A DNA stretch of 64,000 nt, taken from the NCBI GenBank assembly GCA_035402825.1, contig DAONDZ010000001.1, forward strand, positions 172,839-236,838. Reading direction: 5' to 3'. Below are positions 35,539 through 50,416 of the stretch, piece by piece. Within the stretch, counting starts at the first letter, position 1, and every line of letters starts with the position of its first letter. Source of the DNA: a bacterium. Lineage in GTDB: Bacteria; Patescibacteriota; Patescibacteriia; Patescibacteriales; UBA12465. The notes below the pieces were generated by a model, which saw nothing but the letters and a program-made list of their open reading frames with translations, made no database searches and was not told where the DNA came from. The position numbers and the translations under genes were made by a program.

Positions 35539-35547
35539 ATGTCAATA

Positions 35548-36887: not shown

Positions 36888-36992
36888 GTGCTCTTCCGAG
36901 AGAGGATATATAAACAATTAAATTATTAATGAAACAAAGCAACGGACAATATTTTCGGCATTGATAAATTAATATTACTTTTTATAAAAAAA
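36888..36992 (+). repeat. Junction J1 (attL-like): degenerate core, element left arm and promoter
   Basis: gtgctct-tccgagagaggatatataaacaa...cattgataaattaatattactttttataa aligns with 38310-38416, including an identical 29-mer. Contains TTGATA, 16 nt spacer, TATAAA (36961-36988). Confidence 0.6.
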
Positions 36993-37118
36993 AGTCAATT
37001 AATTTAAAATTATAGTTTTATAAAATAATTATCTCTATTTTTAGAGATTTTCTCAGTTCTCGCTATTACTGAGTGGCATGTGTTATAATATGAATACTAA
37101 GTATTAATTTTGTTTTAT

Positions 37119-38216
37119 ATGAAATCTAAAAAAGCCTTTACTCTCATTGAACTCCTCGTTGTGATTGCCATCATTGGCATCCTCGCTACTATTTCCGTTA
37201 TTGCTTTAAACAATGCTCGCGCTAAATCGCGTGATGCTAAAAGAATTGGAGATATCAAGCAAGTCTCAACTGCTTTAGAGCTTTTCTTTAATGATAAAAA
37301 TCGTTATCCGACTGTGGAAGAATGGAATACCGGACAGATTTTTTCTACTACTACCGGCGCTACCTCGACTTATATGCAAATCATTCCAGCCGCCCCAACG
37401 CCTAACGATGGCTCTTGCACAACTGGACAAAACACTATTAGCTATACTCCAACACTCGATGGAGCTTCCTATACTGTCTCTTTTTGTTTAGGCAATACTA
37501 CTGGGGCCCTTGATTCCGGACCGAAGTGCTTGACTCCTGGAGGCGTTTTGGATGTAGATTGTTCAATCACTATTCCTGCCGCCCCTAGCTTTGCTTGTGG
37601 CACTGATAGTGTGACTTATGAAGGTGAAGTCTATCCTACTGTTTATATTGATAATACTGGTGGCCACAATTTGAGCCTTCCTGGCCAATGTTGGTTCGCC
37701 AAAAACCTCAATGTGGGAACTATGGTTGCTGGTGCTGCCAATCAAGCTGATAACGGTATTATAGAAAAGTATTGTTATAATGATAATACTTCCAATGAAT
37801 GTGCTACTGATGGCGGTTTGTATCAATGGGATGAAGCTATGCAATATTCCGTGGCTGAATCGGCTCAGGGCATTTGCCCTGACGGGTGGCATTTGCCGAC
37901 TGACGCAGAACAAAATACCTTGGATCAAAATTTAAATGACACCACTTGTAATGCTAATAGAACTGGAGATTGGGGTTGTGCTAACGCCGGTACTAAATTA
38001 CAGGACGGTGGGACTTCTGGACTTAATGTTCTCCGAGCCGGCACTCGTTATATCAATGCGGCGTTCTACGCTCGAGGGGTGTACACGATTTTTTGGTCAT
38101 CGTCTATTAGCGGTTCGGCCGCCTGGGGTCGGAATGTGACCACTAACAACGCTGCCGTTTACCGCAATTCTTATGACCGAACCACCGGCTATTCTGTGCG
38201 TTGTCTTCAGGACTAA
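37119..38216 (+). CDS. Type IV pilin-like protein with a C-terminal FISUMP-type domain (paralogue 1, not matched by the TR)
   Basis: KAFTLIELLVVIAIIGILA prepilin-type N-terminus. GGLYQWDEAMQY...GICPDGWHLPTDAEQNTL...YSVRCLQD. ATG 37119 preferred. Extended -10 TGtTATAAT at 37081-37089. Confidence 0.8.
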   Translation: MKSKKAFTLIELLVVIAIIGILATISVIALNNARAKSRDAKRIGDIKQVSTALELFFNDKNRYPTVEEWNTGQIFSTTTGATSTYMQIIPAAPTPNDGSCTTGQNTISYTPTLDGASYTVSFCLGNTTGALDSGPKCLTPGGVLDVDCSITIPAAPSFACGTDSVTYEGEVYPTVYIDNTGGHNLSLPGQCWFAKNLNVGTMVAGAANQADNGIIEKYCYNDNTSNECATDGGLYQWDEAMQYSVAESAQGICPDGWHLPTDAEQNTLDQNLNDTTCNANRTGDWGCANAGTKLQDGGTSGLNVLRAGTRYINAAFYARGVYTIFWSSSISGSAAWGRNVTTNNAAVYRNSYDRTTGYSVRCLQD

Positions 38217-38248
38217 TTCGACTATTTTGATCTTTTGGAAGGCCGAAT

Positions 38249-38267
38249 CACTAGAATATTTCTAGTG
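38249..38267 (+). terminator. Hairpin downstream of paralogue 1
   Basis: cactagaa / tat / ttctagtg. No strong T run, so terminator function is uncertain. Confidence 0.35.
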
Positions 38268-38273
38268 GTATAA

Positions 38274-38399
38274 ACAAAAAGAGAACTGGCACAGGCCAGT
38301 TCTCAGAAAGTACTCCTCCGAGAAGAAATATCGAAACATTTAAACGAAATTGTTGAGGAAATTAAACTTTGGTCGATGTTTTTGACATTGATAAATTAA
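38274..38399 (+). pseudogene. 3'-terminal remnant of a serine recombinase gene spanning junction J2
   Basis: Reads TKRELAQASSQKVLLREEISKHLNEIVEEIKLWSMFLTLIN*, compared with NKRELATASSPKVPLREKISKRFNEIIGEIKRWARFLDECPF* at the end of the 43659-45236 recombinase. Nothing upstream of it is recombinase-like. Confidence 0.65.
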
Positions 38400-38415
38400 T
38401 ATTACTTTTTATAAC
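38388..38415 (+). promoter_or_regulatory. Candidate promoter in the element left arm
   Basis: TTGATA, 16 nt spacer, TATAAC. Identical 29-mer at 36958-36986. A perfect TTGACA also sits at 38382-38387. Confidence 0.4.
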
Positions 38416-38489
38416 TATAAAAGTCAACAAAGTTAAAATCCTCTTTTGTTTATTCAAAAACCTAATTAAAATTTACTCCCACTATTGTC

Positions 38490-38499
38490 GGGGGGGGGG
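38490..38499 (+). repeat. G10 homopolymer tract in the promoter region of the DGR target gene
   Basis: tcGGGGGGGGGGcagaaaaTGtTATAAT. The tract ends 10 nt upstream of the -10 hexamer. Confidence 0.9.
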
Positions 38500-38506
38500 C
38501 AGAAAA

Positions 38507-38515
38507 TGTTATAAT
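38507..38515 (+). promoter_or_regulatory. Extended -10 element (TGtTATAAT) upstream of the DGR target gene
   Basis: The same TGtTATAAT is found upstream of paralogue 1 (37081-37089). Confidence 0.5.
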
Positions 38516-38551
38516 AAAACTAGATTAAGCTAATTATTAATTTATTTTAAT

Positions 38552-39697
38552 ATGTTAAAGAGAAAAGCCTTCACTCTAGTAGAACTATTGGTAGTAATAG
38601 CCATCATTGGCCTATTAGCTACTCTATCAGTCATTGCTCTAAATAGTGCTAGAGCTAAGTCTAGAGATGCTAAGAGAGTAGCTGATGTTAAACAGATCTC
38701 TACGGCTCTAGAGCTATTCTTCAATGATGCTGGCAGATACCCCACTGATCTAGAATGGGCTAGTGGCTCTTTAGAGTATAATGGTCAGACCTATCTCTCT
38801 ATTATCCCTTCTGCCCCTACCCCTGCTGATGGTAGCTGTGACTCTACTACCAACTCTTTTTCTTATACCCAGGATAATAGTGGTGAATCATATACTCTCA
38901 CCTTCTGTACTGGTGGAGTAGTGGGTTCTCTTACTGCTGGTGAGCTTTGTGCTACCCCGGGTGGGATGGCGGGGTGTGGGGGAGGCGGGGGCTGTATTCT
39001 TGATTGTACTAACAAAAACTGTGGTGATGATGGCTGCGGTGGTAGCTGTGGTGTTTGTACCGGCAATGATGTCTGTACTAATGGTACCTGTACTACTCCT
39101 CCTTTTGCTTGCGGAGACTCTGTCTCCTATGGCGGTGAATCATATCCCACGGTTCTGATCGGAGCCCAGTGTTGGTTTGCTAAGAATTTAAATGTTGGGG
39201 ATATGGTGACCGGGGTCACCCCTCAGTCAAACAACGCTATTGTAGAAAAATATTGTTATAATGATGACGCTTCTCATGAATGCGCCACCTACGGTGGCCT
39301 ATACCAATGGGATGAAGCTATGCAATATTCTGTCACCGAAGGGGCCCAAGGTATTTGTCCTGACGGTTGGCATATCCCAACTGACGCTGAACAAAATACT
39401 TTAGACCAAGGTTTAAATGATACTACTTGTAATGCTAATAGAATTTTAGCTTGGGACTGTGCCAATGCCGGTACCAAATTACAGGCTGGAGGTACTTCTC
39501 ATTTTGAAGGCCTCTTGGCCGGCTACCGCAATACCAATGGGTCGTTCAACGATCAAGGGACGTACGCGCTCTTCTGGTCATCTACTATTAGTGGACCGGA
39601 TGCCTGGGATCGGCTCTTGTACACTGGCTACGCGACCGTTCGCCGCGGTCATGATGACCGAGCCTACGGCTTTTCCGTGCGTTGCCTTCAGGACTAA
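38552..39697 (+). CDS. DGR variable (target) protein: type IV pilin-like N-terminus, Cys/Gly-rich linker, FISUMP-type C-terminal domain
   Basis: KAFTLVELLVVIAIIGLLA; CGGGGGCILDCTNKNCGDDGCGGSCGVCTGNDVCTNGTCT; GGLYQWDEAMQY...GFSVRCLQD. The last 178 nt form the VR. Confidence 0.9.
   Translation: MLKRKAFTLVELLVVIAIIGLLATLSVIALNSARAKSRDAKRVADVKQISTALELFFNDAGRYPTDLEWASGSLEYNGQTYLSIIPSAPTPADGSCDSTTNSFSYTQDNSGESYTLTFCTGGVVGSLTAGELCATPGGMAGCGGGGGCILDCTNKNCGDDGCGGSCGVCTGNDVCTNGTCTTPPFACGDSVSYGGESYPTVLIGAQCWFAKNLNVGDMVTGVTPQSNNAIVEKYCYNDDASHECATYGGLYQWDEAMQYSVTEGAQGICPDGWHIPTDAEQNTLDQGLNDTTCNANRILAWDCANAGTKLQAGGTSHFEGLLAGYRNTNGSFNDQGTYALFWSSTISGPDAWDRLLYTGYATVRRGHDDRAYGFSVRCLQD
39518..39695 (+). other. 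DGR variable region (VR)
   Basis: 178 nt aligned without gaps to TR 40277-40454. There are 16 mismatches, each opposite a TR adenine. Confidence 0.9.
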
Positions 39698-39700
39698 TTC

Positions 39701-39727
39701 GACTATTTTGACTATTTTGACTATTTT
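39701..39727 (+). repeat. Three tandem copies of gactatttt just after the target stop codon
   Basis: gactatttt gactatttt gactatttt. Paralogue 1 has one copy in the same place (taattcgactattttga is shared). Confidence 0.85.
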
Positions 39728-39752
39728 TCCGCCTCGTGTAAGCGAGGCGGAA
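39727..39752 (+). promoter_or_regulatory. GC-rich hairpin downstream of VR (candidate DGR target-recognition cruciform and/or terminator)
   Basis: ttccgcctcg / tgtaag / cgaggcggaa: a 10-bp perfect stem. With a t-g closing pair the loop becomes GTAA (GNRA-type). Confidence 0.55.
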
Positions 39753-39768
39753 TTAATTAAATTTTTCT

Positions 39769-40113
39769 ATGGCTACCTATGATAATTTGCCGGTGTATAA
39801 AGCCAGTTATGATTTACTGCTAGAAATATTCACTTTCAGTAAGAACATGGACAAAGAATATAAATATACCATTGGAGAAGATTTGAAAAAAGAAACCACG
39901 GCCATGATTACCAATATCTATCGCGCCAACTGCAACCAAAATAAAAAAGAGTTAATTCAAAGTGGTCGGGAAAATTTGGAAGTCATCAGATTATATTTAC
40001 GCCTAATTAAAGATTTGAAACAAATAAATTTGTTAAAATTTGTAAAGATTAATGAAATTATTGAGTCAATTTCCAAGCAATTAAATTTTTGGCAAAGTGC
40101 CATGAAATCATAA
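39769..40113 (+). CDS. avd: DGR accessory variability determinant (four-helix-bundle, 23S rRNA IVS protein family)
   Basis: 114 aa helical protein (PVYKASYDLLLEIFTFSKNMDKEYKYTIGEDLKKETTAMITNIYRAN...) sitting between target and TR as in canonical DGRs. Confidence 0.75.
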   Translation: MATYDNLPVYKASYDLLLEIFTFSKNMDKEYKYTIGEDLKKETTAMITNIYRANCNQNKKELIQSGRENLEVIRLYLRLIKDLKQINLLKFVKINEIIESISKQLNFWQSAMKS

Positions 40114-40276
40114 TGGGCCAGAGTCGTCATCGGTTACGGCCAGGGCGAGCGTGCCTCACTAGTCCAATAGTCCACTAAATTTTCTAAATTTAGTAATTGA
40201 CGGGGCAACCTGTCATTCTGCTGATTTTTTAGATAATATCAAATCAGCCGAAGAGGTTAGCGATTATTATAAAAGA

Positions 40277-40454
40277 GCCGGCAACCGCAATACCAATGGG
40301 TCGTTCAACAATCAAGGGACGAACGCGAACTTCTGGTCATCTACTATTAGTGGACCGGATGCCTGGAATCGGAACTTGAACACTGGCAACGCGACCGTTA
40401 ACCGCAATCATAATGACCGAGCCAACGGCTTTTCCGTGCGTTGCCTTCAGGACT
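40277..40454 (+). other. DGR template region (TR)
   Basis: Encodes AGNRNTNGSFNNQGTNANFWSSTISGPDAWNRNLNTGNATVNRNHNDRANGFSVRCLQD in the VR frame, with 15 AAY codons. Flanked by hairpins at 40178-40198, 40220-40248 and 40461-40487. Confidence 0.9.
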
Positions 40455-40508
40455 GGTCAAAAGGAGCCATATATCAATGGCTTCTTTTATTTTACTAAAA
40501 TATTTTTT

Positions 40509-41684
40509 ATGTCCGACAAACTTCTGGTTGACCTTTTTCAAGCCTATTACGACGCCCGACGCTATAAAAGAAATACAATGAGCGCTCTTAACTTTGAGAT
40601 TAATTTGGAGCAAAATATATTTGAATTGTATCGGGAGATAAAAAATAATACTTATCAAATTAGTCCCAGCCTAGCTTTTATTATCTTTGACCCGGTGCAG
40701 AGAGAAATTATCGCCTCGCCCTTTCGGGATCGAGTCGTGCATCACCTGGTTTTTAATTATATCAACCCCATTCTTGAAAATCTCTTTATTTCTGACAGTT
40801 ATAGCTGTCGCCAAGGCAAGGGTATTAGCTACGGAGTTAAGCGAGTCGCTCATTTTGTCCGCTCCAGTTCGCAAAATTATAGAGTTGATAATTATATTCT
40901 CAAATTGGATATTTCCGGCTATTTTATGAGTATTAACCAATCTGTTTTATATGATAAGGTAGAAAATTATTTATTAAGGCATAATGTTGATTACCCCTTT
41001 GACCTAAAATTAATTTCAGCCCTGCTAAAGAGAATTGTTTTTCACGATTATATTAAAGATTGCGTTATAAGAGGTGGAAAGACCAACTGGAAAAAATTAC
41101 CCCGCAACAAGAGTCTATTTTTCACGCCCCCGGGTTTTGGTTTGCCCATTGGCAATTTAACCTCGCAATTATTTAGTAATGTTTATTTAAATGATTTTGA
41201 CCATTATATTAAGCGGACTTTGAAATTTAAGTATTATGGTCGTTATGTCGATGACTTAATCATTATTGACGGTAGTAAAGAAAGGCTCCAAATAGCTATG
41301 GCCAAAATTGCGGAATATTTATCAACGAATCTAAACTTAAAAATTCACCCCAGAAAAATCTATTTACAGCCCTATGCCAAAGGCGTTAATTTTTTAGGCG
41401 GGATTATTAAACCCCACAGAATTTATGTCCGCCACCGGACTAAAACCAGTTTTTATCGCTCAGCGACTAAGGCTAATAATATTCTGAAGAATGTAGATGT
41501 AGAAAGGAAAGCCCTCAGGAAAATTTTATCCAGTTTTAATTCCTATTTAGGGGTGTTTGGGCAATATCAGACCTATAATTTACGCCGTAAAATATTGGAC
41601 AACAAGCTATCCTCGGATTTTTGGCGTTATTTTAGACTTGGGAAAGGTGAGTCAAGATATAGAAAAATTGTTTTAAGAAAATAA
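40509..41684 (+). CDS. DGR reverse transcriptase
   Basis: LPIGNLTSQLFSNVYLNDFD (the IGxxxSQ motif typical of DGR RTs) and YGRYVDDLIII (YxDD). ATG 40509 chosen because the longer track ORF (40413) starts inside the TR. Confidence 0.9.
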   Translation: MSDKLLVDLFQAYYDARRYKRNTMSALNFEINLEQNIFELYREIKNNTYQISPSLAFIIFDPVQREIIASPFRDRVVHHLVFNYINPILENLFISDSYSCRQGKGISYGVKRVAHFVRSSSQNYRVDNYILKLDISGYFMSINQSVLYDKVENYLLRHNVDYPFDLKLISALLKRIVFHDYIKDCVIRGGKTNWKKLPRNKSLFFTPPGFGLPIGNLTSQLFSNVYLNDFDHYIKRTLKFKYYGRYVDDLIIIDGSKERLQIAMAKIAEYLSTNLNLKIHPRKIYLQPYAKGVNFLGGIIKPHRIYVRHRTKTSFYRSATKANNILKNVDVERKALRKILSSFNSYLGVFGQYQTYNLRRKILDNKLSSDFWRYFRLGKGESRYRKIVLRK

Positions 41685-41690
41685 TTATAC

Positions 41691-42306
41691 TTATCCCCAG
41701 CAAAATGCTAGCAAATTTAAATATTTAAAAAAGTTTTTCAAATTCCCAATAAATTCACCCCTTAACCTTACCGCTAATTTATGCTATGATACATTCAGAC
41801 TTAATCAATAAAAATATATAACCTCGGGACCCATTGTTGAATAGATGTCGCTCGCATGAAACGCAAAATAAAAAAATAAAACTCATAAAATAATATCCCC
41901 TGTAAATTAGCAAAGTCTTTCTTTGCCAATTGAAACTAATTAACCAGCATTTGTCCGTGCTCGGTTTTTTTGTTTTGGCAAAGACTATTAAATTTCGTCG
42001 TCGCCTGTTTAGATAGCGAAACAGGTTAGTTGATTTCTTTGGTGTAAACATAAGCGTGTAGTTTGGTTTTAGCCTATTAGTGGTACTTGCCCGTCGCTAA
42101 TGGCTAGTTCTGTTATTAATTTCTCATTTTTGACCGTCCCCCAAGCATTGTTTTTTAGTTTTTTTTCGGCGAGGCTTGTCCGCTCGCCGAAAAAATAAAA
42201 ACAAGCTGGGGGCGGTAAATGAGATTTTAGACAAAAGTAGTGTCCGTTTGTCGTGTGCCTCTATTAGACTTGACTATAGGCACACTTAACGCCGTTATTA
42301 AACTCT
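41691..42306 (+). other. Conserved structured non-coding region upstream of Rep (copy 1): promoter, terminator-like hairpin, nested stem-loops, candidate replication origin
   Basis: Aligns with 47040-47682. TTAACC, 17 nt, TATGAT at 41762-41790. Hairpin plus T run at 41944-41976. Nested structure 42122-42224 (tctcattt...aaatgaga enclosing ttttttcggcgag/ctcgccgaaaaaa). Hairpin gtgtgcct...aggcacac at 42253-42285. Confidence 0.55.
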
Positions 42307-43098: not shown

Positions 43099-43138
43099 CA
43101 AAACTGATTTTGTTAATCATACGTTCATCTAAAATATA

Positions 43139-43288
43139 ATGACTATTGAGGCTCTTAAAAAATCAATAGTAGGTCGTGGGCGACAGTATTCCGATGACGA
43201 ATTGGAGACAATTAGACGCGACTTATACCAACTGGCTCATCTGCTAGTCGAATATTATTTTAATCAGCAAAAAATATTAATAAAATAA
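43139..43288 (+). CDS. Small helical protein (49 aa), YSDDELE-RRDLY family
   Basis: MTIEALKKSIVGRGRQYSDDELETIRRDLYQLAHLLVEYYFNQQKILIK. Conserved in E_C (48518-48673). Confidence 0.5.
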   Translation: MTIEALKKSIVGRGRQYSDDELETIRRDLYQLAHLLVEYYFNQQKILIK

Positions 43289-43298
43289 ATAAAAAATT

Positions 43299-43454
43299 AT
43301 GATGAGTATAAGTAAATTAAGAAAATTGTTAAGCGAAAAGGCAAATGAATACAGCGAAGAAGAACTAGAAGAAATGCGGCGAGATATTTATACATTTGCT
43401 AATCTAGCCTTTGATATTTATAAAGAGAATCCCAGGATATTAGATAAATATTAA
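43299..43454 (+). CDS. Small helical protein (51 aa), paralogue of the preceding ORF
   Basis: MMSISKLRKLLSEKANEYSEEELEEMRRDIYTFANLAFDIYKENPRILDKY shares the YS-EELE-x-RRD-Y-x-A-L core. Confidence 0.45.
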   Translation: MMSISKLRKLLSEKANEYSEEELEEMRRDIYTFANLAFDIYKENPRILDKY

Positions 43455-43461
43455 AGCGATA

Positions 43462-43658: not shown

Positions 43659-45236
43659 ATGCAAAAAGGAATAATCTATTACCGAGTTTCAACCGAAGAT
43701 CAGGCTCAAACTGGTGTTAGTTTGGAGCAACAGAAAAACGCTTGTCTTGATTACGCTCAAAAGAATGATATTGAAATACTAAAATTATTTCACGATGACG
43801 GAGTGTCTGCTAAAACTACCAAAAGAGCAGGACTTCAAGAACTATTGGCGTATTGTAAAAAGAATCATAAAGAGATTGATTGTTTGATAGTCTATAAAAT
43901 TGACCGGCTATCTCGAAATGTAAAAGACTACGCCACGCTATTAATGGCTTTGGGCGAATTTAACATTAAATTCATATCTACCACTGAAACCGTTAACGAA
44001 ACTTCTAGCGGAAAATTAATTGGCACAATTATGGCCTCGTTCGCTCAATTTGATAATGATGTTAGGAGCGAAAGAGTGTCGGTCTGTATGCTCGAAAAAG
44101 CCAAGCAGGGAATCTGGTGCTTCAAGGCCCCATTCGGTTATCTAAACAGCCGTGATGAGCAAAATAGAGCCATTATAACCATTGATAAGAGTAGGGCCGA
44201 GATTATTAAAATGGCCTTTGAAAAGTTTGCTACAGGATTATATAAAATGGAGGAAATACGGATAATGATGATTAAGGCCGGATTTAAAACCTGGCGAGAT
44301 AAAGAAATAAGCATCCAAAGTGTATTTAGAATTTTGATTGATAAGTTTTATATTGGAGTTATGACGATTAAAGGTCAAGAATATCAGGGGAGCCACGAGG
44401 TTTTTATTAATGAAAACACTTTTTATAAATGTCAAAAATTAATCCGCACTTCTAAACGAGGCGACAATATTGCTTTTAAACGCACTAATGAAATGTTCCC
44501 TCTCAGAAATTTTATTTTATGCCCCTCCTGTGGTCGTCCTTTTACTGCTTGCTTGTCCCGCAACTCCCGGGGTAATTATTACCCGTATTATAGATGTTAT
44601 AACAAAAACTGCCGAGGTTATAAATCAATATCTAAAGATAAATTGGAAAATAAGTTCAGCGATTATCTTAAAAGTATAGCGCCTGATCCTTATTTTGCCA
44701 AAGATTTAAGATTAATAGTTATTGAGGAATGGGAGAAAAAAATTAAAAACTATAAAGGCAGTTTGGTTGATGCCAAAAATCAGTTAGAAGTATTGGAATT
44801 AGAAAAGTCCAAATTGATAGAAATGAAGAAAAAGGACCTGCTTGACGACAATGATTTTAAAGAAGAAATGTCTAAAGTGAAGATTAAAATTGCTGAGAAA
44901 CAGTCTACCCCAGCTGAGAATATTCCTAATAATTTTGACATTAAGAAACAATCCAAAAAAGTTTTTGATATCATTCCCGACCTTGATAAATTTTATAATA
45001 GTCTTGGTTATTATGACAAACTTAAATTTCAGAGTTTGATTTTTCCCGAAAAGGTCTATTTTGATTTTTCAGAAAGTCGAACAGCTAAAATGTCGCTAAT
45101 ATTACAGAATAAAAGAGAACTGGCGACTGCCAGTTCCCCGAAAGTACCCCTCCGAGAGAAGATATCTAAACGATTTAACGAAATTATTGGGGAAATTAAG
45201 CGGTGGGCGAGGTTTTTGGACGAATGCCCATTTTGA
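43659..45236 (+). CDS. Large serine recombinase (integrase), copy 1
   Basis: Resolvase-type catalytic domain (IYYRVSTEDQ...VYKIDRLSRN), recombinase domain, zinc ribbon (CPSCGRPFTAC...YYRCYNKNC), coiled coil. Confidence 0.85.
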   Translation: MQKGIIYYRVSTEDQAQTGVSLEQQKNACLDYAQKNDIEILKLFHDDGVSAKTTKRAGLQELLAYCKKNHKEIDCLIVYKIDRLSRNVKDYATLLMALGEFNIKFISTTETVNETSSGKLIGTIMASFAQFDNDVRSERVSVCMLEKAKQGIWCFKAPFGYLNSRDEQNRAIITIDKSRAEIIKMAFEKFATGLYKMEEIRIMMIKAGFKTWRDKEISIQSVFRILIDKFYIGVMTIKGQEYQGSHEVFINENTFYKCQKLIRTSKRGDNIAFKRTNEMFPLRNFILCPSCGRPFTACLSRNSRGNYYPYYRCYNKNCRGYKSISKDKLENKFSDYLKSIAPDPYFAKDLRLIVIEEWEKKIKNYKGSLVDAKNQLEVLELEKSKLIEMKKKDLLDDNDFKEEMSKVKIKIAEKQSTPAENIPNNFDIKKQSKKVFDIIPDLDKFYNSLGYYDKLKFQSLIFPEKVYFDFSESRTAKMSLILQNKRELATASSPKVPLREKISKRFNEIIGEIKRWARFLDECPF

Positions 45237-45240
45237 TAAT
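45111..45240 (+). repeat. Junction J3 (attP-like hybrid between units E_B and E_C)
   Basis: aaaagagaactggcgactgccagttccccgaaa-gtacccc-tccgagagaagatatctaaacga.... The left half matches 50311-50350 and the right half matches 38317-38399. Confidence 0.65.
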
Positions 45241-45250
45241 TTTTTGGTGC

Positions 45251-45279
45251 TTGACTTTTCCTCAGAAAAGTGGTATTAT
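45251..45279 (+). promoter_or_regulatory. Candidate cargo promoter of unit E_C
   Basis: TTGACT, 17 nt, TATTAT. Confidence 0.5.
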
Positions 45280-45366
45280 TATATATTCAACAAATTAGAC
45301 TTACTGTTTAATTTTAGCTATAATAAAGGAATAATACAAGAGTAAATTTATACTAAAATTAACAAT

Positions 45367-45552
45367 ATGTTAAAAAATCAAGTGAATTCCAACGAAAATA
45401 AAGTTAACCTGATAAATGATATATATAATCAGGCTTTAAACGACATTGAAAAAATTAAAAAGGAAAGGGATAAGAAAATTAAGAATGTTCTGAAAGAAAT
45501 AGATAAAAAGCACGTAGCCAAGGCTCTCAGGGATATAAAAAATTCAAAATAA
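45367..45552 (+). CDS. Hypothetical K/N-rich small protein (61 aa)
   Basis: ORF only, with coiled-coil-like composition. Confidence 0.35.
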   Translation: MLKNQVNSNENKVNLINDIYNQALNDIEKIKKERDKKIKNVLKEIDKKHVAKALRDIKNSK

Positions 45553-45583
45553 TTTTTAATATTAAAAAATAACAATCAATTAT

Positions 45584-46969
45584 ATGAATATGGAAAATCA
45601 AGTCAAGGAATCCCCATTAGAAAAAGCTAAACGGCTAAAAGCCGAAAAAGAAAGCAAAGATCAGGCCAAAATCGAGGCTGAATCTTCCGCTAAAGCTGAA
45701 AAATTGGGGGCTCTTAATAGCCAAAAACAAGGACTAGAAAATCAGCTCGATGAAATTAATTCTAAAATTGAAGCCTCGAGGGGCGAAGCTCATGAAACTA
45801 GGGACACCATGCAAGAGGCTGGCCTAAATAAAGACGAGGAATTTAAAGGTGAATATAATTCCACCATTTCTGAAGTGGCTGGAAATTTAAATGAATTGAG
45901 AAATGAAAGAAATAGAATTAAGGCCGAGTTAGAGCAAATTAATTCTAATATTGAAAATTTTGAAGTCAACGAAGCTATTTCGGAGGGCAAAGAAGCTACT
46001 CAGGAAGCGGTTGAAACTGTTAATCAGGAAAACGAGCAGGCTATAACCCAAGTAGAAAATTATCCCGGTGCTGAAGCTGGGGATATTAAGGCTTCTCAGG
46101 AAATAGTGTCCGAAATAAACCAGGAGGTTAATCAGGTTGTTAAAAATTCTGAGAATAATGTTAAAGAAGTATCCGGTGAAAAAAAAGAGGAAAAAAAGGA
46201 AAAAACATTTGATTTTGATGATATTGCCAAAGAAATCACGTCTGACGTCGCCCATCTTTTAAATGAAGAAGATAAAAGACTGAAGATAGTAAAAGAAAAT
46301 ATTTTAAAAATGCCTAAAGCGAGCAAGGGAGATTATGAAAAAATTTTCGCGGAGGAAGCTGTTAAATTTGAAAGACGCCTCTATACCGTTAACAATTTAT
46401 TAGCTAAGTTAGAATATCCGATTAATAGACTTGCATATCAAGGGAAGTATGACCAAGATCGTGATAAAAATTTGAAGAGGCAGGAAGAATTGGTTAATTA
46501 CATTAATAATATCGCCAACACTAGCCCGGCTAGCCAAAAAGAAACGGAAATATTCAATATTTTGAGAGAAAAAATTGCAAAGGCATCAGACAAGGAGACT
46601 GCGGGAGAAAAAAAAGAAAAAACATTCGAAGAGGTTAGACAGGAAGTGGCGGTAGAAGTCGGTAATCTTGTCAACGCAGAAAGAAATAAATTAAGCGACG
46701 CAGAACTAAGAGTGCGTAATTTTCAAGGAGGCAAGGAAGAATATGAAAAATTAAGACATGATATTTATGGCATTCAATGGGATGCTCGCTACCTCGTAGA
46801 TATTGATGAAAAATTGGAACCTTTAAAAATTATTGCTACACAATCTGGGAAGTTGAAAGAATTTGACAAGATGCATCAGGATCAAACTATTTCTGATTAT
46901 AAAAATTTCAATAAAGTAGCTGGAGAATTGATAGAAGATTTGGACAAAAAGATGTCAAAAACATCCTAG
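45584..46969 (+). CDS. Acidic coiled-coil protein (461 aa) with an internal duplication
   Basis: E/K/N/Q-rich N-terminal half. Two related modules each begin GEKKE(E)K..KTF(D/E) (nt about 46176 and 46604). Confidence 0.6.
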   Translation: MNMENQVKESPLEKAKRLKAEKESKDQAKIEAESSAKAEKLGALNSQKQGLENQLDEINSKIEASRGEAHETRDTMQEAGLNKDEEFKGEYNSTISEVAGNLNELRNERNRIKAELEQINSNIENFEVNEAISEGKEATQEAVETVNQENEQAITQVENYPGAEAGDIKASQEIVSEINQEVNQVVKNSENNVKEVSGEKKEEKKEKTFDFDDIAKEITSDVAHLLNEEDKRLKIVKENILKMPKASKGDYEKIFAEEAVKFERRLYTVNNLLAKLEYPINRLAYQGKYDQDRDKNLKRQEELVNYINNIANTSPASQKETEIFNILREKIAKASDKETAGEKKEKTFEEVRQEVAVEVGNLVNAERNKLSDAELRVRNFQGGKEEYEKLRHDIYGIQWDARYLVDIDEKLEPLKIIATQSGKLKEFDKMHQDQTISDYKNFNKVAGELIEDLDKKMSKTS

Positions 46970-46999
46970 ATAAATTTTACAGGATTATAAAAAAACTAC

Positions 47000-47030
47000 A
47001 AAAACGCTTTTAAAAGGGCGTTTTTGTGTT
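47000..47030 (+). terminator. Intrinsic terminator after the E_C cargo
   Basis: aaaaacgc / ttttaaaagg / gcgttttt followed by gtgttt. Confidence 0.5.
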
Positions 47031-47039
47031 TAATAATAT

Positions 47040-47682
47040 TTATCCACAGCGAAATATTAGCAAAACTAATTATTTTAAAAAATTGTTAAAATCACTCGCA
47101 AAACCAGCCCTTAACCCGCCCTCAAAAATATGGTATAATATAGTTGGACTAAAATAAAAATAAACTAACGCTGGGAACCACGGTTGAAACGGTATAAAGA
47201 TTATTGTATGCGCTTCTAAATAAAATAAAACTCAAAAAATATTATCCCTTGCAAAAATTAGCAAAGTCCAGTCTTTGCCAATTTAAACTTTAAACCAACA
47301 TTAGGCCGATGTTCGGTTTTTTTGTTTTGGTAAAGAGTAGTCGTCGGTTAGCAGTCTTGCCGTTGCTAGCCGACGACCATGCCTGTTTAGTCTCTCGTCT
47401 TTGGCTAAGCAGGTTGGTAATTCCTTTTAGGTGAACATAAGCGTATGATCTTGATTTAGCCCATTAGCGGCGTTTGCCCCGTTGCTAGTGGCTTGTTCTG
47501 TTCTTTTAATTTCTCATTATTGACGCCGCCGGACTGGATTTTTTCTTTTTTCGGCGAGTTGTCTGCGAGCCGAAAAAGAAAAACCAGCCGAGGCGGTAAA
47601 TGAGATTTTAGACAGAATAGTTCCCAGTGTGCCGTCGTCATATTAGACTTGACTATAGGCACACTTAACGCCGTGATAACTT
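47040..47682 (+). other. Conserved structured non-coding region upstream of Rep (copy 2)
   Basis: TTAACC, 17 nt, TATAAT (47111-47139, with TG). Hairpin plus T run at 47295-47329. Nested structure 47512-47608. Hairpin gtgtgcc...ggcacac at 47627-47664 with the same loop, tattagacttgactat. Confidence 0.55.
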
Positions 47683-48468
47683 ATGGAGATTAAACCACGA
47701 GTTTATCGGCAAAAGCTGATAGAGTCGGGTGATTATGTAGAAATATATGACTTTGAGAATTTCATTAAAATCAATCAAAAAAGAAAAAAGAGAAGAAATA
47801 AAAATAAAATTAAAAAAGATACTAATGACGAGGATAAAGAAAACGAGCAAAACTTAAAAAGCCATTTTTCATTGAGGCGGAGCCGATCAAATATTATTCG
47901 GTTGGTAAATTCCAACCCCGATTTAAAAGTATTTATCACCTTAACTTTTGATAGCCATAAATTTGGGGATAAGCCATTTACTGATTTTAAGGAATGTAAT
48001 TTGATATTTTCTAATTTCATTAAGCGGTTAAAACGGAAATACCCTGAATTAAAATATCTGGCCGTTCCCGAATTTCAAAGCGATTATTATCACCGCACTA
48101 ACATCAGAAAAGAATTTGGCGGTAATATTCACTATCATTTGCTGTCTAATTTGCCATTTATTCAGAGCGAAGAATTAGAGAAAATTTGGGGCTACGGATT
48201 CATTAAAATCAATAATATCCGACAGGTGTCTGCTGTCGGGCCGTATGTCGCCAAATATATCGGCAAAGAATTATTTGACGGTCGCTTAAATGGAAAGAAA
48301 AAATTGTTTTATTCGAGGACTCTTAATCGCTCTAAAATTGTTATTACTTATTCAAGAATAAAAGAATATCTCAACAACTTAAAATCACCTCTCCAGCTTT
48401 TGCACGAGACAACTTATCAGGCCGAATATGTCGGCAGAGTTCGCTATCGGCTCTATAAACAAAGGTAG
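47683..48468 (+). CDS. HUH rolling-circle replication initiator, copy 2
   Basis: Same three motifs as copy 1 (VFITLTF, NIHYHLLS, GPYVAKYIGKE). Differs mainly in the basic, low-complexity residues 30-65. Confidence 0.7.
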   Translation: MEIKPRVYRQKLIESGDYVEIYDFENFIKINQKRKKRRNKNKIKKDTNDEDKENEQNLKSHFSLRRSRSNIIRLVNSNPDLKVFITLTFDSHKFGDKPFTDFKECNLIFSNFIKRLKRKYPELKYLAVPEFQSDYYHRTNIRKEFGGNIHYHLLSNLPFIQSEELEKIWGYGFIKINNIRQVSAVGPYVAKYIGKELFDGRLNGKKKLFYSRTLNRSKIVITYSRIKEYLNNLKSPLQLLHETTYQAEYVGRVRYRLYKQR

Positions 48469-48517
48469 CCTAGTTAATAAACTAAAGTTGAATACCGACC
48501 CATTCAATATTCAACTC

Positions 48518-48673
48518 ATGATTAGTTTGACAGTCCTTAAAAAATTAATAGTAAGCCGTGGCCGACAGTATTCCGATGACGAATTGGAGACAATCAGGCG
48601 CGACTTATACCAACTGGCTCATCTTTCGTTCAAGTATTATCTTAATCAGCAAAAAAAGCTATTGTCAAAATAA
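48518..48673 (+). CDS. Small helical protein, YSDDELE-RRDLY family (E_C copy)
   Basis: MISLTVLKKLIVSRGRQYSDDELETIRRDLYQLAHLSFKYYLNQQKKLLSK. The track ORF 48428 starts inside Rep; ATG 48518 is preferred. Confidence 0.45.
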   Translation: MISLTVLKKLIVSRGRQYSDDELETIRRDLYQLAHLSFKYYLNQQKKLLSK

Positions 48674-48852
48674 AAATATATGCTAATATCCTTAATGGAC
48701 ACAATTAAATTAAGGCATAGCAACTATTCTCAAATCATAATGACGGCAGATGAGTCGTTTTGATATAAAGGGAGCAGTGGCTGTTTCAGTTATGCCTTGC
48801 ATAATTGTGTCCGACAGTTCACTGCTCTCTTTTTATTATTAACTTTAAATTT
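48662..48852 (+). promoter_or_regulatory. Promoter plus structured leader of the recombinase gene (copy 2)
   Basis: TTGTCA...TAATAT. P1 ggacacaatta/taattgtgtcc; P2 aaggcata/tatgcctt (a different sequence from copy 1, but still paired); same conserved loop and same cactgctc-tctcttttt end. Confidence 0.5.
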
Positions 48853-50382
48853 ATGGCCAAGCAAAAAGGTATTGTTTATTACCGAGTTTCTACCGAAGAT
48901 CAAGCTCAAACTGGCATTAGCTTAGAACAGCAGAAAAATGCCTGCCTTGATTATGCTCAAAAGAATGAAATTGAAATCTTGAAATTATTTCACGATGACG
49001 GCGTGTCCGCCAAAACTACCAAAAGGGCAGGCCTTCAAGAGTTGCTGGCGTATTGTAAAAAGAATTACAAAGAGATTGATTGTCTGATAGTTTATAAAAT
49101 TGACCGCTTGTCCCGAAATGTAAAAGACTACGCTACCTTGCTTATGGTTCTTGGCGAATTAAACATTAAATTCATTTCCACCACCGAAACAGTCAACGAT
49201 ACATCGAGCGGAAAGCTTATTGGCACGATTATGGCCTCATTTGCTCAATTTGATAATGATGTGCGAAGTGAAAGGGTGTCGGTTTGTATGCTGGAAAAGG
49301 CCAAGCAGGGGATTTGGTGCTTCAAAGCCCCATTTGGTTATCTAAACAGTCGAGATGGGCAAAATAGAGCCATTATAACCGTTGATAAGGAGCGTATGCC
49401 CATTATAAAAATGGCCTTTGAAAAGTTTGCCACGGGTTTATACAAAATGGAGGAAATTAGGCAGATGATGATTAAGGCCGGATTTAAAACATGGCGAGAT
49501 AAGGAAATAAGTATTCAAAGCGTATTCAGGATTTTAATTGATAAGTTCTATATTGGCGTTATGACGATTAAGGGCCAAGAATATCAAGGCAGTCATGAGA
49601 TATTTATTAATGAAAATACTTTTTATAAATGCCAAAAATTAATCCGTACTTCCAAGCGAGGCGACAATATTTCCTTTAAACGCACTAACGAATTATTCCC
49701 CTTGCGAAATTTTATTTTATGTCCCTCTTGCGGTCGGCCTTTCACCGCCTGCTTATCAAAAAATCACCAAGGCAAGCTCTACCCCTATTATATGTGCTAT
49801 AACAAACTCTGCCGAGGCTATAAGTCCATATCCAAAGATAAGCTGGAAAATCAGTTCAGCGATTATTTGAAAAATATATCGCCTGATCCTGATTTTGCTA
49901 AAGCTTATCAAGTAATTGTGGTCGAGGAATGGGAAAAAGGCTTGAAAAACTATCAAAGCAGTCTGGCTAATATAAAAAATGAATTAGATCAGTTGGAAAT
50001 AGAAAAATCTAAATTAATTGAAATGAAGAAAAAAGAGCTTTTAGATGACGAGGATTTTAAAGAGGAAATGTATAGAGTAAAAGTTAAAATAGCTGATAAA
50101 CAAAATTTTCCAGCCGACAATATCGCCGATGATTTTGATGTTAAAAAAGAATCTAAAAAAATTTTTACCATTATCCCTAATTTGGATAAATTCTATAATG
50201 GATTAAATTATTACGAAAAAATTAAACTACAAGGTTTGATTTTTCCTGAAAAGCCGGTGTTTGATTTTTCCGAAAATCGAACCCACAAAATCTCGCTAAT
50301 ATTACAAAACAAAAGAGAGCTGGCAAGTGCCAGTTCTCCGAAAGTACCCCCAAGAGGAATCGAACCTCTATGGTCAGCTTAG
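48853..50382 (+). CDS. Large serine recombinase (integrase), copy 2; its 3' end runs antisense into tRNA-Arg
   Basis: MAKQKGIVYYRVSTEDQ..., collinear with copy 1 up to ...SSPKVP, then PRGIEPLWSA* encoded opposite the tRNA. ATG 48853 preferred. Confidence 0.85.
   Translation: MAKQKGIVYYRVSTEDQAQTGISLEQQKNACLDYAQKNEIEILKLFHDDGVSAKTTKRAGLQELLAYCKKNYKEIDCLIVYKIDRLSRNVKDYATLLMVLGELNIKFISTTETVNDTSSGKLIGTIMASFAQFDNDVRSERVSVCMLEKAKQGIWCFKAPFGYLNSRDGQNRAIITVDKERMPIIKMAFEKFATGLYKMEEIRQMMIKAGFKTWRDKEISIQSVFRILIDKFYIGVMTIKGQEYQGSHEIFINENTFYKCQKLIRTSKRGDNISFKRTNELFPLRNFILCPSCGRPFTACLSKNHQGKLYPYYMCYNKLCRGYKSISKDKLENQFSDYLKNISPDPDFAKAYQVIVVEEWEKGLKNYQSSLANIKNELDQLEIEKSKLIEMKKKELLDDEDFKEEMYRVKVKIADKQNFPADNIADDFDVKKESKKIFTIIPNLDKFYNGLNYYEKIKLQGLIFPEKPVFDFSENRTHKISLILQNKRELASASSPKVPPRGIEPLWSA
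50311..50350 (+). repeat. Junction J4 (attR-like): element right arm plus core, fused to the tRNA-Arg acceptor stem
   Basis: aaaagagagctggcaagtgccagttctccgaaa-gtacccc, then caagaggaatcgaacc (the tRNA T arm, antisense). Confidence 0.65.
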
Positions 50383-50416
50383 AAGGCTGGTGTTCTATCC
50401 ATTGAACTATGGGGGC
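50345..50416 (-). tRNA. tRNA-Arg (anticodon TCT)
   Basis: Reverse complement gccccca-ta-gttc...ccagc-ctTCTaa-gctga...agagg-ttcgatt-cctct-tgggggt-a. Position 72 gives a G1-U72 pair, and this end coincides with the island junction. Confidence 0.85.

Follow-up and report, generated by a model that had tools for sequence, protein, structure and literature searches.

Positions 36888-50350 of the window, the 64,000-nt stretch of Patescibacteria DNA analysed here, very probably consist of three plasmid-like integrative elements that were site-specifically integrated at the 3′ end of a tRNA-Arg(TCT) gene. The evidence supports an array of two intact elements and one gutted element, arranged head to tail and bounded by attL, two attP-like junctions and attR. 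Their insertion appears to be the work of serine recombinases from a little-known family, in which the recombinase gene itself spans the site of integration. This reading draws on the anatomy of the junctions, empty sites in related genomes, the same element at another tRNA, horizontal spread, domain content, a family-wide overlap of the recombinase reading frame with tRNA genes, and a circular relative.

The four junctions, J1-J4, are located at 36888, 38310, 45144 and 50344 and share a core and arms far above chance. Their alignment gives the order B-O-P′ / P-O-P′ / P-O-P′ / P-O-B′, with the P arm absent at J1 and the P′ arm absent at J4. A repeat search of the window recovered the left (P) arm three times (38226-38316, 45060-45150 and 50260-50350, with spacings of 6834 and 5200), as well as the right (P′) arm three times (starting at 36888, 38310 and 45144, with spacings of 1422 and 6834). 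These spacings exactly reproduce the unit sizes of 1422, 6834 and 5200 bp predicted in an earlier note on this DNA, which had also placed the left arm at the last three cores. The 21-nt P′ consensus has 3 matches against 0.00 expected, and the P-arm hairpin pattern occurs at 3 sites, each matching on both strands, against 0.11 expected. The similarity of the P arm, which is coding sequence from the 3′ end of the large serine recombinase (LSR) gene, extends over ~90 nt. The P′ arm, previously taken to be ~100 nt long at three cores, is indeed repeated, but only J1 and J2 share that length, while J2 and J3 share ~75 nt.

The cores were confirmed at all four positions proposed earlier, but that of J1 (attL, 36888-36894), GTGCTCT, is degenerate and agrees with GTACCCC at only 4 of 7 positions. 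The flank to its left shows no similarity to the P arms and no match to the empty site of a close relative; this chromosomal B arm is the promoter region of a 63-aa gene at 36657-36848(-). J2 (38310-38316, GTACTCC) and J3 (45144-45150, GTACCCC) have attP-like cores and mark the unit 1/unit 2 and unit 2/unit 3 boundaries, respectively, while the attR core at J4 (50344-50350, GTACCCC) corresponds to tRNA nucleotides 74-68. No clear dyad symmetry was seen in attP. The GC content is 0.32-0.37 in the element backbone (40000-50500) versus 0.40-0.44 in the flanks.

The target tRNA-Arg(TCT) gene, located at 50344-50416(-) by ARAGORN and Rfam, is identical in sequence to the tRNA at empty sites, which were found in four related metagenome contigs (L016, L017, L018 and L020) with unrelated left flanks. 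Homology between the array locus and the empty sites breaks exactly at the core, and the alignment of occupied L019 with empty L016, 82% identical rightward, ends exactly at the tRNA 3′ end. In L017, the order is TrmH, tRNA-Arg, 148 bp, a 175-aa gene and tRNA-His, and the same interval spans 14.2 kb in the window; comparison with genomes lacking the island, which the earlier note had suggested, thus yielded a relative that keeps the flanking synteny. The region 36076-36887, containing a 115-aa and a 63-aa gene, is likewise missing from L017, so the variable region may in fact begin to the left of J1. All four empty sites read ...GTA|CCCCC, so U72, A73 and C74 are native; since attB and attP have the same 7-nt core, GTACCCC, the tRNA sequence is not altered by integration. 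The idea that the element supplies the 3′ acceptor strand of the tRNA and thereby creates a G1-U72 pair was rejected, because every empty site already has this pair.

Serine recombinase and HUH Rep genes had been assigned to two units and described as lost from the leftmost one, and the Pfam domains agree. Unit 1 (1422 bp) has a P′ arm at 36895-36990(+) with a recombinase-tail remnant interrupted by a stop codon (FRERIYKQLNY, then stop), and its cargo, at 37110-38216(+), is a pilin-like gene encoding an N-terminal methylation motif and a Fib_succ_major domain. Its P arm (38222-38309(+), hairpin at 38281-38304) is what remains of a lost recombinase gene, namely the final ~90 nt, and is fused to the region downstream of the pilin gene through 9 nt of microhomology, CTATTTTGA. 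Unit 1 arose by a ~5.3-kb deletion at this microhomology, which left its two arms and the pilin-like gene. This gene is a paralogue of the target of the diversity-generating retroelement (DGR) in unit 2, with 74-76% nucleotide identity, but is not a target of the present template repeat (TR).

Unit 2 (6.8 kb) carries the DGR, a rolling-circle Rep and an LSR. Its P′ arm at 38317-38414(+) contains an open LSR-tail frame, LLREEISKHLNEIVEEIKLWSMFLTLIN, closed by a stop codon, which would join the unit 2 LSR in the circular form. The DGR comprises a pilin-like Fib_succ_major target at 38552-39697(+), with the variable repeat (VR) at 39518-39695, the TR at 40277-40454(+) and, by domain matches, the accessory protein bAvd at 39769-40113(+) and the reverse transcriptase at 40413-41684(+). 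All TR/VR mismatches (16/16) fall at TR adenines, and a sub-threshold RT-7 RNA match lies directly upstream of the TR (40117-40274). The Rep gene at 42307-43098(+) belongs to PF23343 (REP_ORF2-G2P; motifs FITLTF, HYH and YVAKYVGK), and it is followed by a conserved ~49-aa protein at 43139-43288(+), a second small ORF at 43299-43454, and a promoter-like site with a conserved structured leader at 43462-43658(+). The LSR ORF, 43659-45236(+), crosses J3 and ends in the unit 3 P′ arm, so its protein is in the attP-type, tail-bearing form. The P-arm hairpin at 45114-45139(-), an 11-bp stem followed by a U-tract, is terminator-like.

Unit 3 (5.2 kb) contains Rep, LSR and cargo other than a DGR. Its P′ arm at 45151-45236(+) encodes the tail LREKISKRFNEIIGEIKRWARFLDECPF, and its cargo at 45367-46969(+) consists of a 61-aa ORF and a 461-aa Glu/Lys-rich protein, neither of which gave a family match. 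The rolling-circle Rep (PF23343) is encoded at 47683-48468(+), the unit's copy of the small conserved protein ahead of the LSR at 48518-48673(+), where the start codon is uncertain and the ORF opens at 48428, and the promoter-like site with the conserved structured leader is found at 48662-48852(+). The 509-aa LSR (P0004; 48853-50382(+), ATG at 48853) is encoded by an ORF that passes J4 and stops within the tRNA gene (…PRGIEPLWSA). The P-arm hairpin at 50315-50338(-) is located 8 nt past the 3′ end of the tRNA and precedes UUUUGUUUUG on that strand.

An intact element carries a rolling-circle Rep, the small conserved protein, which is a candidate regulator or directionality factor, the structured leader and the LSR. 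The attP site lies within the last ~100 nt of the LSR gene, and integration severs this gene about 28 codons from its end, exchanging the conserved tail encoded by P′ (…EI[KR]xW…) for 11 tRNA-antisense codons. Among 120 LSR homologues, 107 end in a peptide derived from a tRNA T arm, with the motif starting 8 residues from the end in 97 of these, and 4 have the alternative conserved tail. The invariant LSR residues R9, S11, Q15, R83 and R86 and four Cys are present, and a coiled coil is predicted. In the model of the tail, pLDDT is below 50 at residues 488-506 (linker and tail start) and 520-525, and the rest of the predicted helix has low-confidence block means of about 50-58. Of 4 short comparisons, 3 gave a pN/pS below 1 for the tail and one did not. 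The tail swap may have a function. A T-arm-like motif lies ~5 bp further out in P′ than in B′, a weak signal (7/13). Ten of 11 family members have the 11-bp hairpin with its U-tract 8 nt from the core, and compensatory changes are seen among them. After integration, this P-arm hairpin, on the strand opposite the LSR, sits 8 nt behind the tRNA and would replace its native terminator; that of unit 3 is likely an element-derived terminator for the tRNA gene. The excised form would presumably replicate by the rolling-circle mode.

The elements have spread horizontally. A Patescibacteria MAG (L008) contains a single DGR+Rep+LSR element at tRNA-Glu(CTC), which is 87% identical to unit 2 and bounded by the same P′ and P arms, with homology ending exactly at the core. 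This single element, the junction alignment and the empty sites together back the earlier B-O-P′/P-O-P′/P-O-P′/P-O-B′ reading. The L009 element is 93.7% identical to unit 2, the host flank just 73.9%, and the L015 element is ~87% identical. In L021, a circular relative of 10.8 kb whose ends overlap by 30 nt, there is no tRNA, P is joined to P′, and attP lies within the LSR gene. It is extremely improbable that the repeats simply reflect conservation at the 3′ ends of paralogous recombinase genes and upstream of pilin-like genes: the P arm does encode protein and a gene follows the P′ arm in every unit, but homology with both the empty sites and the tRNA-Glu element stops exactly at the core, the two arms are joined in the circle, and 107/120 family members end inside a tRNA.

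The same relatives bear on an origin by tandem duplication in situ, in which copies of one ancestral island would have diverged and had their cargo replaced. The backbone order of units 2 and 3 (Rep, small ORF, leader, LSR) and the paralogous pilin-like genes of units 1 and 2 would fit such an origin, which we nevertheless regard as very improbable, because unit 2 is nearer to the L009 and L008/L015 elements than to unit 3 (only ~81% identity), the hosts of those nearer elements are only ~74% identical or use another tRNA, and cargo differs between units. It is also rather improbable that the units represent small ssDNA phages (inovirus- or plectrovirus-like) or their satellites in integrated form, instead of plasmid-like elements. 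Inoviruses often integrate and form tandem arrays, the Rep falls in PF23343 (ORF2/G2P of filamentous phages) and PHROG replication-initiator families, and no function could be assigned to the 461-aa, 61-aa and other small ORFs; however, Pfam and PHROGs revealed no virion gene, whether for a morphogenesis ATPase, a coat protein or anything else, the non-backbone genes of unit 2 form a DGR cassette, and IMG/VR held no close relative. Moreover, the same LSR module is elsewhere tied to quite different cargo (a restriction-modification-like set in L021, radical SAM in L011 and HTH/M78 in L013).

As for the growth of an array of plasmid-like elements, we infer successive integrations. Since attR keeps the core and the whole tRNA half-site, later arrivals would most likely integrate again at this tRNA-proximal junction, displacing older units outward. 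On this model, unit 1 would have arrived first and later shrunk by the deletion at CTATTTTGA, followed by unit 2 with its DGR cargo and lastly by unit 3. Canonical serine integrases use only attP x attB as substrates, and attP x attR is not a reaction of canonical LSRs; repeated integration therefore requires an unproven tolerance for the B half-site, which is suggested by the B arms of the four empty sites having only GTA in common. Alternatively, the array could stem from a single integration of a co-integrate, with two circles fused via ~81-87% identical Rep/LSR segments or attP x attP, or from homologous recombination between chromosomes carrying different elements at the same tRNA. These routes would avoid the need for attB, none of which is left after the first integration, and the units have long homologous stretches in common. 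Intermediate configurations were not seen: the checks proposed earlier produced the four empty sites but no circular or reduced forms of these units, as 10 contigs, which come from at least 5 samples, showed neither an excised circle nor a partly occupied site nor a reduced array of units 1-3. All 10 contigs carrying both Rep proteins have the same unit order, and flank-gene look-ups recovered only the same strain. We nonetheless consider these routes unlikely. The decay gradient, from gutted unit 1 with its degenerate core to intact, tRNA-adjacent unit 3, fits stepwise arrival on the tRNA side; all three units are mutually divergent (70-81%); the B half-site seems tolerant; and SCC elements provide a known case of tandem arrays produced by serine recombinases.

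In SCC/SCCmec composite islands of staphylococci, Ccr LSRs insert at the 3′ end of rlmH (orfX), leaving the gene intact, and intact and decayed units stand in tandem, separated by repeated integration-site sequences. SCC elements, which often have two recombinases (CcrA and CcrB), thus resemble this array in the serine recombinase, the preserved housekeeping-gene end and the tandem of intact and decayed units; they differ in targeting rlmH and not a tRNA, in their larger size (20-60 kb) and in att sites outside the recombinase gene. Phage serine integrases (phiC31, Bxb1, A118/LI) have the domain architecture of the LSRs described here (catalytic domain, recombinase domain, and zinc ribbon with coiled coil) and short att sites, and the motif offset between P′ and B′ matches their half-site model, weakly (7/13). 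To our knowledge, their targets are protein-coding or intergenic and attP lies beside int, whereas here attP is inside the LSR gene and the target is a tRNA. An attP within coding sequence is known from cluster G/N/P mycobacteriophages, with integration-dependent immunity, an interrupted repressor gene and a tyrosine integrase, and from SSV1-type archaeal viruses, whose tyrosine integrase gene is split in the middle. Such a position makes the integrated and free C-termini differ, or splits the gene, and so would provide a built-in sensor of the integration state; here, the exchange is confined to the ~28 terminal codons of a serine recombinase gene.

Once excised, pSAM2 is replicated by a rolling-circle Rep. 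Together with SLP1, it represents the AICEs, which measure about 10-17 kb and integrate in the 3′ end of specific tRNA genes (PMC2440964). AICEs share with the present elements the tRNA 3′-end sites and the combination of integration and replication modules with cargo, but they reside in actinomycetes and use a tyrosine integrase with Xis and FtsK-like Tra transfer, while the elements in Patescibacteria are half their size and have an LSR and no transfer gene. The available part of the report on Prochlorococcus tycheposons describes small cargo elements with replication genes that target tRNAs and pile up in tandem, newcomers driving older ones into the island and degenerate remnants being left, much as proposed for this array; their recombinases are tyrosine enzymes in 910 of 937 cases and LSRs in the remainder (10.1101/2020.12.28.424599). 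In that part, the direct repeats are partial tRNAs of about 40 nt, in contrast to the 7-nt core here, and no integrase ORF spanning attP is described (10.1101/2020.12.28.424599). The unit 2 DGR resembles clade 2 DGRs of CPR, described as almost entirely cellular-encoded, in its reverse transcriptase, bAvd, adenine-specific TR/VR changes, pilin-like surface target and Patescibacteria host (PMC8144416). Unlike in that clade, the entire cassette is here the cargo of a 6.8-kb mobile element found at two tRNAs in different genomes.

Three integrated units stand in tandem beside a tRNA-Arg(TCT) gene, which ARAGORN and Rfam both place at 50344-50416 on the minus strand. A repeat search over positions 35500-51500 recovered a left (P) arm of ~91 nt in three copies (38226-38316, 45060-45150 and 50260-50350), spaced by 6834 and 5200 nt, and a right (P') arm in three copies starting at 36888, 38310 and 45144, spaced by 1422 and 6834 nt. 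These spacings are exactly the unit sizes of 1422, 6834 and 5200 bp that an earlier note had forecast. In a four-way alignment of the junctions (J1 at 36888, J2 at 38310, J3 at 45144 and J4 at 50344), J1 has no left arm and J4 has no right arm, the tRNA running on there; alignment and repeat search together bear out the order B-O-P' / P-O-P' / P-O-P' / P-O-B' claimed in that note, where O is the core and B and B' are the chromosomal arms. The junction similarities stand far above expectation, with three matches to a 21-nt right-arm consensus in the 64-kb window against 0.00 expected, and three sites matching the left-arm hairpin pattern against 0.11. The elements end at repeated cores, one of them within the 3' end of the intact tRNA, and the J1 core (GTGCTCT) is degenerate, agreeing with GTACCCC at four of seven positions. 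The element backbone (40000-50500) has a GC content of 32-37%, lower than the 40-44% of the flanks.

Scanning metagenomes with 30 nt from the body of the tRNA returned six contigs. Four of them (L016, L017, L018 and L020) carry the identical tRNA and then unrelated sequence, and all four read …[C/A]GTA followed by CCCCCAAGAGG at the empty site; the remaining two, L015 and L019 (the same sequence), hold a unit-2-like element with the same P arm. Occupied L019 aligns with empty L016 over 1.1 kb at 82% identity, and the alignment stops exactly at the tRNA 3' end. In L017, the gene order is TrmH-like gene, tRNA-Arg, 148 bp, a 175-aa gene and tRNA-His, and the equivalent gap in the window measures 14.2 kb. 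In these four island-free relatives, then, homology ends at the core, as the site-specific integrations proposed in the earlier note would have it. A genome scan with the large serine recombinase (LSR) of the array found, in a Patescibacteria MAG (L008), a single element comprising a diversity-generating retroelement (DGR), a Rep and an LSR, which is 87% identical to unit 2, begins with the same P' arm (…GTAGTCCTCCGAGAGGAGATATCTAAAC), finishes with the same P arm and has tRNA-Glu(CTC) as its target. The elements of the related contigs L009 and L015 are located at tRNA-Arg of other genomes, and L009 is 73.9% identical to the window over 11.8 kb of flank and 93.7% identical in the element. The identity between units 2 and 3 is only ~81%. 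At the level of sequence comparison, the empty sites, the synteny, the L008 and L009 elements and the divergence of units 2 and 3 together show discrete, horizontally mobile elements that end at the predicted cores and arrived independently rather than by duplication in situ.

The core common to attB and attP is only GTACCCC (7 nt; AGTAG in L008), and because both sites share it, the tRNA is unaltered by integration. The earlier note had taken the G1-U72 pair of the tRNA as a product of the element; the pair is real but native, as all four empty sites have GTA (C74, A73, U72). The GTG of J1 might hint at an ancestral C72, yet those four sites led us to reject an element-made pair. Across the six tRNAs of the window (4420, 12174, 15253, 30045, 35465 and 50344), C74 is encoded in every one and a full CCA in none. 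The G1-U72 wobble is found only in tRNA-Arg(TCT), one of the six. Every target tRNA with a GTA core seen in relatives has U72-A73-C74, namely Arg-TCT, Glu-CTC, two Glu-TTC (read by ARAGORN in contig L014; partial and read by eye in contig L013) and the tRNA of contig L032. Shared by all these targets, U72 points to a choice of target by the recombinase, rather than a change made to the tRNA, as the probable cause of the pattern. A dyad-symmetry scan of five attP-type sites gave no convincing inverted repeat around the core. In P', a T-arm-like motif lies ~5 bp farther from the core than in the tRNA, a weak signal (7 of 13 matches) for which the 5-bp offset was best or joint-best in four comparisons, three of them non-independent. 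Such an outward shift is weakly consistent with the prediction of the serine-integrase half-site model.

The contents of the units differ, and gene content and domain matches agree with the earlier note that two units encode both a serine recombinase and an HUH Rep and that the leftmost has neither. Unit 2 (38317-45150) carries a complete DGR, a rolling-circle Rep, two small ORFs and an LSR. Its DGR comprises a pilin-like target gene with a Fib_succ_major domain (38552-39697), bAvd (39769-40113), a template repeat (TR, 40277-40454) and a reverse transcriptase (40413-41684), with the variable repeat (VR, 39518-39695) at the 3' end of the target gene; all 16 TR/VR mismatches fall at TR adenines. 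The VR is identical in the eight contigs that cover it, which come from several samples. Between avd and TR (40117-40274), Rfam gave a sub-threshold match to RT-7 RNA (43 bits; gathering score 116.8). The Rep genes of units 2 (42307-43098; motifs FITLTF, HYH and YVAKYVGK) and 3 (47683-48468) encode motifs I (uuTu), II (HUH) and III (Y-x-x-K/Y) in order and match PF23343 (E 1e-15) as well as PHROG replication initiators. Conserved intergenic blocks were seen at 42033-42092 and 47420-47479. Unit 3 (45151-50350) contains a 61-aa ORF, a 461-aa Glu/Lys-rich protein without a family match, the Rep, a small ORF and an LSR.

All that is left of unit 1 (36895-38316) is a pilin-like paralogue (37110-38216), flanked by a P' arm and by the final ~90 nt of an LSR gene. 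The sequence GACTAATTCGACTATTTTGA after the pilin gene is identical to that following the unit 2 target gene, and the 9-mer CTATTTTGA occurs both after the pilin gene and in the LSR 3' end (45056-45064); unit 1 is therefore best read as the probable product of a ~5.3-kb deletion at a microhomology. Its pilin paralogue was rejected as a current DGR target, as it differs from TR at non-adenine positions too. Immediately before the -10-like TATAAT of the unit 2 target gene runs a G10 tract (38494-38503), which is G11 in L008 (~5027-5037) and has no counterpart in the unit 1 copy; contig L006 stops just short of the tract, at window position 38490. The tract could mediate phase variation by slipped-strand mispairing or merely be an assembly hazard.

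Both LSRs (43659-45236 in unit 2, 48853-50382 in unit 3) have the resolvase-type catalytic domain PF00239 (E 1e-35 and 3e-36), with R9, S11, Q15, R83 and R86 invariant across 48 homologues, and match PF07508 and PF13408, the recombinase and zinc-ribbon domains, above the cut-offs, with C288, C291, C313 and C318 invariant in the same set. In an AlphaFold2 model, residues 344-391 and 397-415 form long helices, which fit an inserted coiled coil. The LSR coding sequence has the P arm as its 3' end, and in both units the ORF runs across a junction (J3 in unit 2, J4 in unit 3). The unit 3 ORF stops after 11 codons of antisense tRNA sequence (…PRGIEPLWSA), and that of unit 2 continues into the P' arm of unit 3 (…LREKISKRFNEIIGEIKRWARFLDECPF). 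A C-terminal peptide encoded by the T arm of a tRNA (G[IFV]EP, RIEL or similar) occurs in 107 of the 120 best homologues, drawn from 244 matches at E<1e-20, and in 97 of those 107 the motif begins 8 residues before the end; where a source is named, it is a Patescibacteria (CPR) lineage or simply 'bacterium'. The tail of the unit 2 type, [ED]-I-[KR]-x-W, was found in four homologues with an overall identity of only 45-48%. One of the four, a family member 47% identical, lies on the 10.8-kb contig L021, which has a 30-nt terminal overlap, no tRNA and, within the LSR gene, a P-O-P' attP; the contig represents either a circle or identical copies in an array, which would assemble alike. Five of six P' arms have an open tail ORF; it shows synonymous substitutions, and its pN/pS is below 1 in three of four comparisons, on sequences too short for this to be decisive. 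AlphaFold2 models the core of the tail-bearing LSR well (mean pLDDT 83) and the tail as a low-confidence helix after a disordered linker, and the confidence of tail and linker is too low to infer a docking site. With attP located within the LSR coding sequence, integration alters the encoded protein throughout the family.

The LSR is accompanied by further conserved parts. On the tRNA strand, the P-arm palindrome forms an 11-bp hairpin followed by a U-tract, beginning 8 nt past the core. A terminator scan detected all three copies, folding z-scores range from -2.4 to -3.7, and compensatory changes (CUGGC/GCCAG, UUAGC/GCUAA, UUGGC/GCCAA, UUUGC/GCAAA) preserve the stem in 10 of 11 family members. 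The hairpin being terminator-like and conserved, the element most likely provides the tRNA with a new terminator. Upstream of every LSR, an ORF of ~49 aa (…GRGRQYSDDELETIRRDLYQLAHL…) precedes a structured leader of up to ~170 nt. The ORF (43139-43288 and 48518-48673; a second small ORF lies at 43299-43454) is conserved beside family LSRs in seven relatives (L008, L009, L011, L013, L014, L015 and L023) and has no family match; its product is the sole candidate for a directionality factor and may instead be a regulator.

The leader itself (~140-170 nt) lies between a sigma-70-like promoter and the start codon of every LSR. The window copies (43490-43658 and 48690-48852) are 87-96% identical between units, as compared with ~81% for the surrounding DNA, and the leader also occurs before an LSR that is only 58% identical. 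Among related contigs it was located in L008 (~9830-9995), L012 (1-222) and L014 (~3425-3590), and in a second subgroup with the same layout and different sequences, L021 (~1185-1320), L023 (~1705-1840) and L013 (~3975-4130). Its long outer stem shows compensatory changes (GGACAUAACUUA/UAAGUUGUGUCC versus GGACACAAUUA/UAAUUGUGUCC versus GGACACAACC/GGUUGUGUCC) and encloses a conserved hairpin (UCAUAAUGACGG…GUCGUUUUGA), and the inner helices retain pairing in unrelated sequences. A second, interleaved helix of 16 bp ends in a U-tract and is a candidate terminator or pseudoknot. Rfam has no family for the leader, and mir-6 matches in the scan were dismissed as chance. The leader resembles an attenuator or a pseudoknotted RNA that regulates the recombinase gene, in either case undescribed, and is a candidate for a new cis-regulatory RNA of serine-integrase genes.

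The LSR module is joined to diverse cargo: an N6/N4 methyltransferase, a ResIII helicase and DUF5655, a restriction-modification or defence-like set, in the circular 10.8-kb L021; radical SAM and PEP-utilising proteins and TrmB in L011; an HTH protein and an M78 peptidase in L013; and a CHAP-domain protein in L022, a 25-kb contig that is possibly phage and whose P arm has no hairpin. In IMG/VR, neither the LSR nor the patterns for attP and the leader retrieved anything close, and a profile search gave one LSR, 43% identical, likewise ending in a tRNA.

These features suggest how the elements may operate. Once excised, an element would form a circle of 5-7 kb and replicate by means of its HUH Rep, a role that we infer from the domain only. 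The LSR of the circle, with its P'-encoded tail, is predicted to recombine attP with a tRNA 3' end that offers C74-A73-U72 and a T arm, crossing over somewhere within GTAC/GTAG. Integration would leave the tRNA intact, add a new terminator and truncate the LSR tail. That this tail swap serves as a regulatory switch is a tentative idea, which we consider rather doubtful. In the simplest model of array growth, a further element would re-integrate at attR (J4), which retains the core and the whole tRNA half-site. The B arms of the four empty sites share nothing beyond GTA, which suggests a B half-site that may well be tolerant. Well-studied serine integrases follow a strict attP x attB rule, and because re-integration at attR breaks it, an array derived from an integrated co-integrate or from homologous recombination stays a live alternative, one to which we assign a low probability. 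Re-integration at attR would place the oldest unit farthest from the tRNA, and the gutted unit 1 with its degenerate core fits this order of ages. The order in L012 is the opposite of that expected under attR re-integration: its LSR P0031 ends (1700-2000) at a 17-nt copy of a tRNA-Ala 3' end (GTGGACCCTAAGGGATT), and the real tRNA-Ala lies ~200 nt away with its own terminator, so that the intact element is distal and a short spacer proximal.

In ten contigs from at least five samples (JGI 3300009692, 3300009694 and 3300025867; ENA ERZ795026 and ERZ27257449; NCBI GCA_035353275.1), the order unit 2, unit 3, tRNA is the same in all ten, and no circle or reduced array of units 1-3 is assembled among them. 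Exact-protein look-ups with both flank genes and both Reps, meant to reveal circles and empty or partly occupied sites within this population, returned only the same configuration. Two Logan contigs (L004 and L005) break off within the tRNA, close to its anticodon, which reflects k-mer sharing among tRNAs and is uninformative. The absence of circles and the invariant VR speak weakly against present activity, assemblies being consensus sequences.

Patescibacteria make up a large share of bacterial diversity and, to our knowledge, hardly any of their mobile elements have been described. Tandem islands at tRNAs are an ordinary phenomenon; the integration module that produced this one is unusual and apparently undescribed, and its phylum is poorly known. 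In behaviour, the nearest analogues include SCC composite islands, which are serine-recombinase arrays at the 3' end of rlmH, elements of the pSAM2 type, with a rolling-circle Rep in pSAM2, and tycheposons. Attachment sites inside a coding sequence, with a protein changed on integration, occur in the repressor of some mycobacteriophages and in SSV-type integrases; our literature search found no such description for a serine integrase, and a full-text search turned up no paper on elements with serine recombinases at the tRNAs of CPR bacteria. pSAM2 and other integrative elements of actinomycetes share the tRNA target but use a tyrosine integrase (PMC2440964). Tycheposons target tRNAs, are replicative and stack in arrays as here, but mostly use tyrosine recombinases. 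We rejected membership in that group, which has a tyrosine recombinase and long partial-tRNA direct repeats, in contrast to the serine recombinase and 7-nt core found here; the elements work like a tycheposon and are not members.

The analysis defines a compact and recognisable integration module (small protein, structured leader, attP-spanning LSR gene and antisense terminator), and LSR proteins with a …GIEP… end provide a sequence signature for finding such elements. CPR DGRs have been described as almost entirely cellular-encoded (PMC8144416), and here a DGR of this type, previously taken to be cellular, is carried by a mobile element of 6.8 kb. The attB/attP pairs that occur naturally at several tRNAs might serve as orthogonal serine-integrase tools and give a handle on LSR-built tandem arrays. 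In its most far-reaching form, which we advance as speculation and think less than likely as a whole, the picture would be that of an undescribed, Patescibacteria-wide family of tRNA-targeting serine integrases with attP in their own 3' end and a C-terminal helix swapped for tRNA-derived residues. The swap, the leader and the ~49-aa protein would act as a sensor of integration state that sets directionality or integrase stability, tolerance of attR would lead to arrays, and the family would be a main vehicle for DGRs and other cargo between CPR genomes.

Variation around the site is broader than the array. In L020, an unrelated insert of 2.1 kb, encoding a TrmB-like regulator and two further ORFs, precedes the conserved 175-aa gene, and the tRNA-Arg site is a turnover hot spot even without an LSR element. 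L018 and L020 are 96.7% identical over the TrmH-like gene and the tRNA, and unrelated directly past the tRNA 3' end. The region between J1 and the 175-aa gene (36076-36887) holds two small minus-strand genes without a family match, at 36194-36541 (115 aa) and 36657-36848 (63 aa), each with its own terminator-like hairpin; the syntenic L017 and L020 lack both genes. An older insertion may have left them behind, and the variable region may therefore extend to the left of J1. Farther left, a 1698-aa ORF without a Pfam match (30317-35413) separates tRNA-Leu(CAG) from tRNA-His, two genes that are ~740 nt apart in L017.
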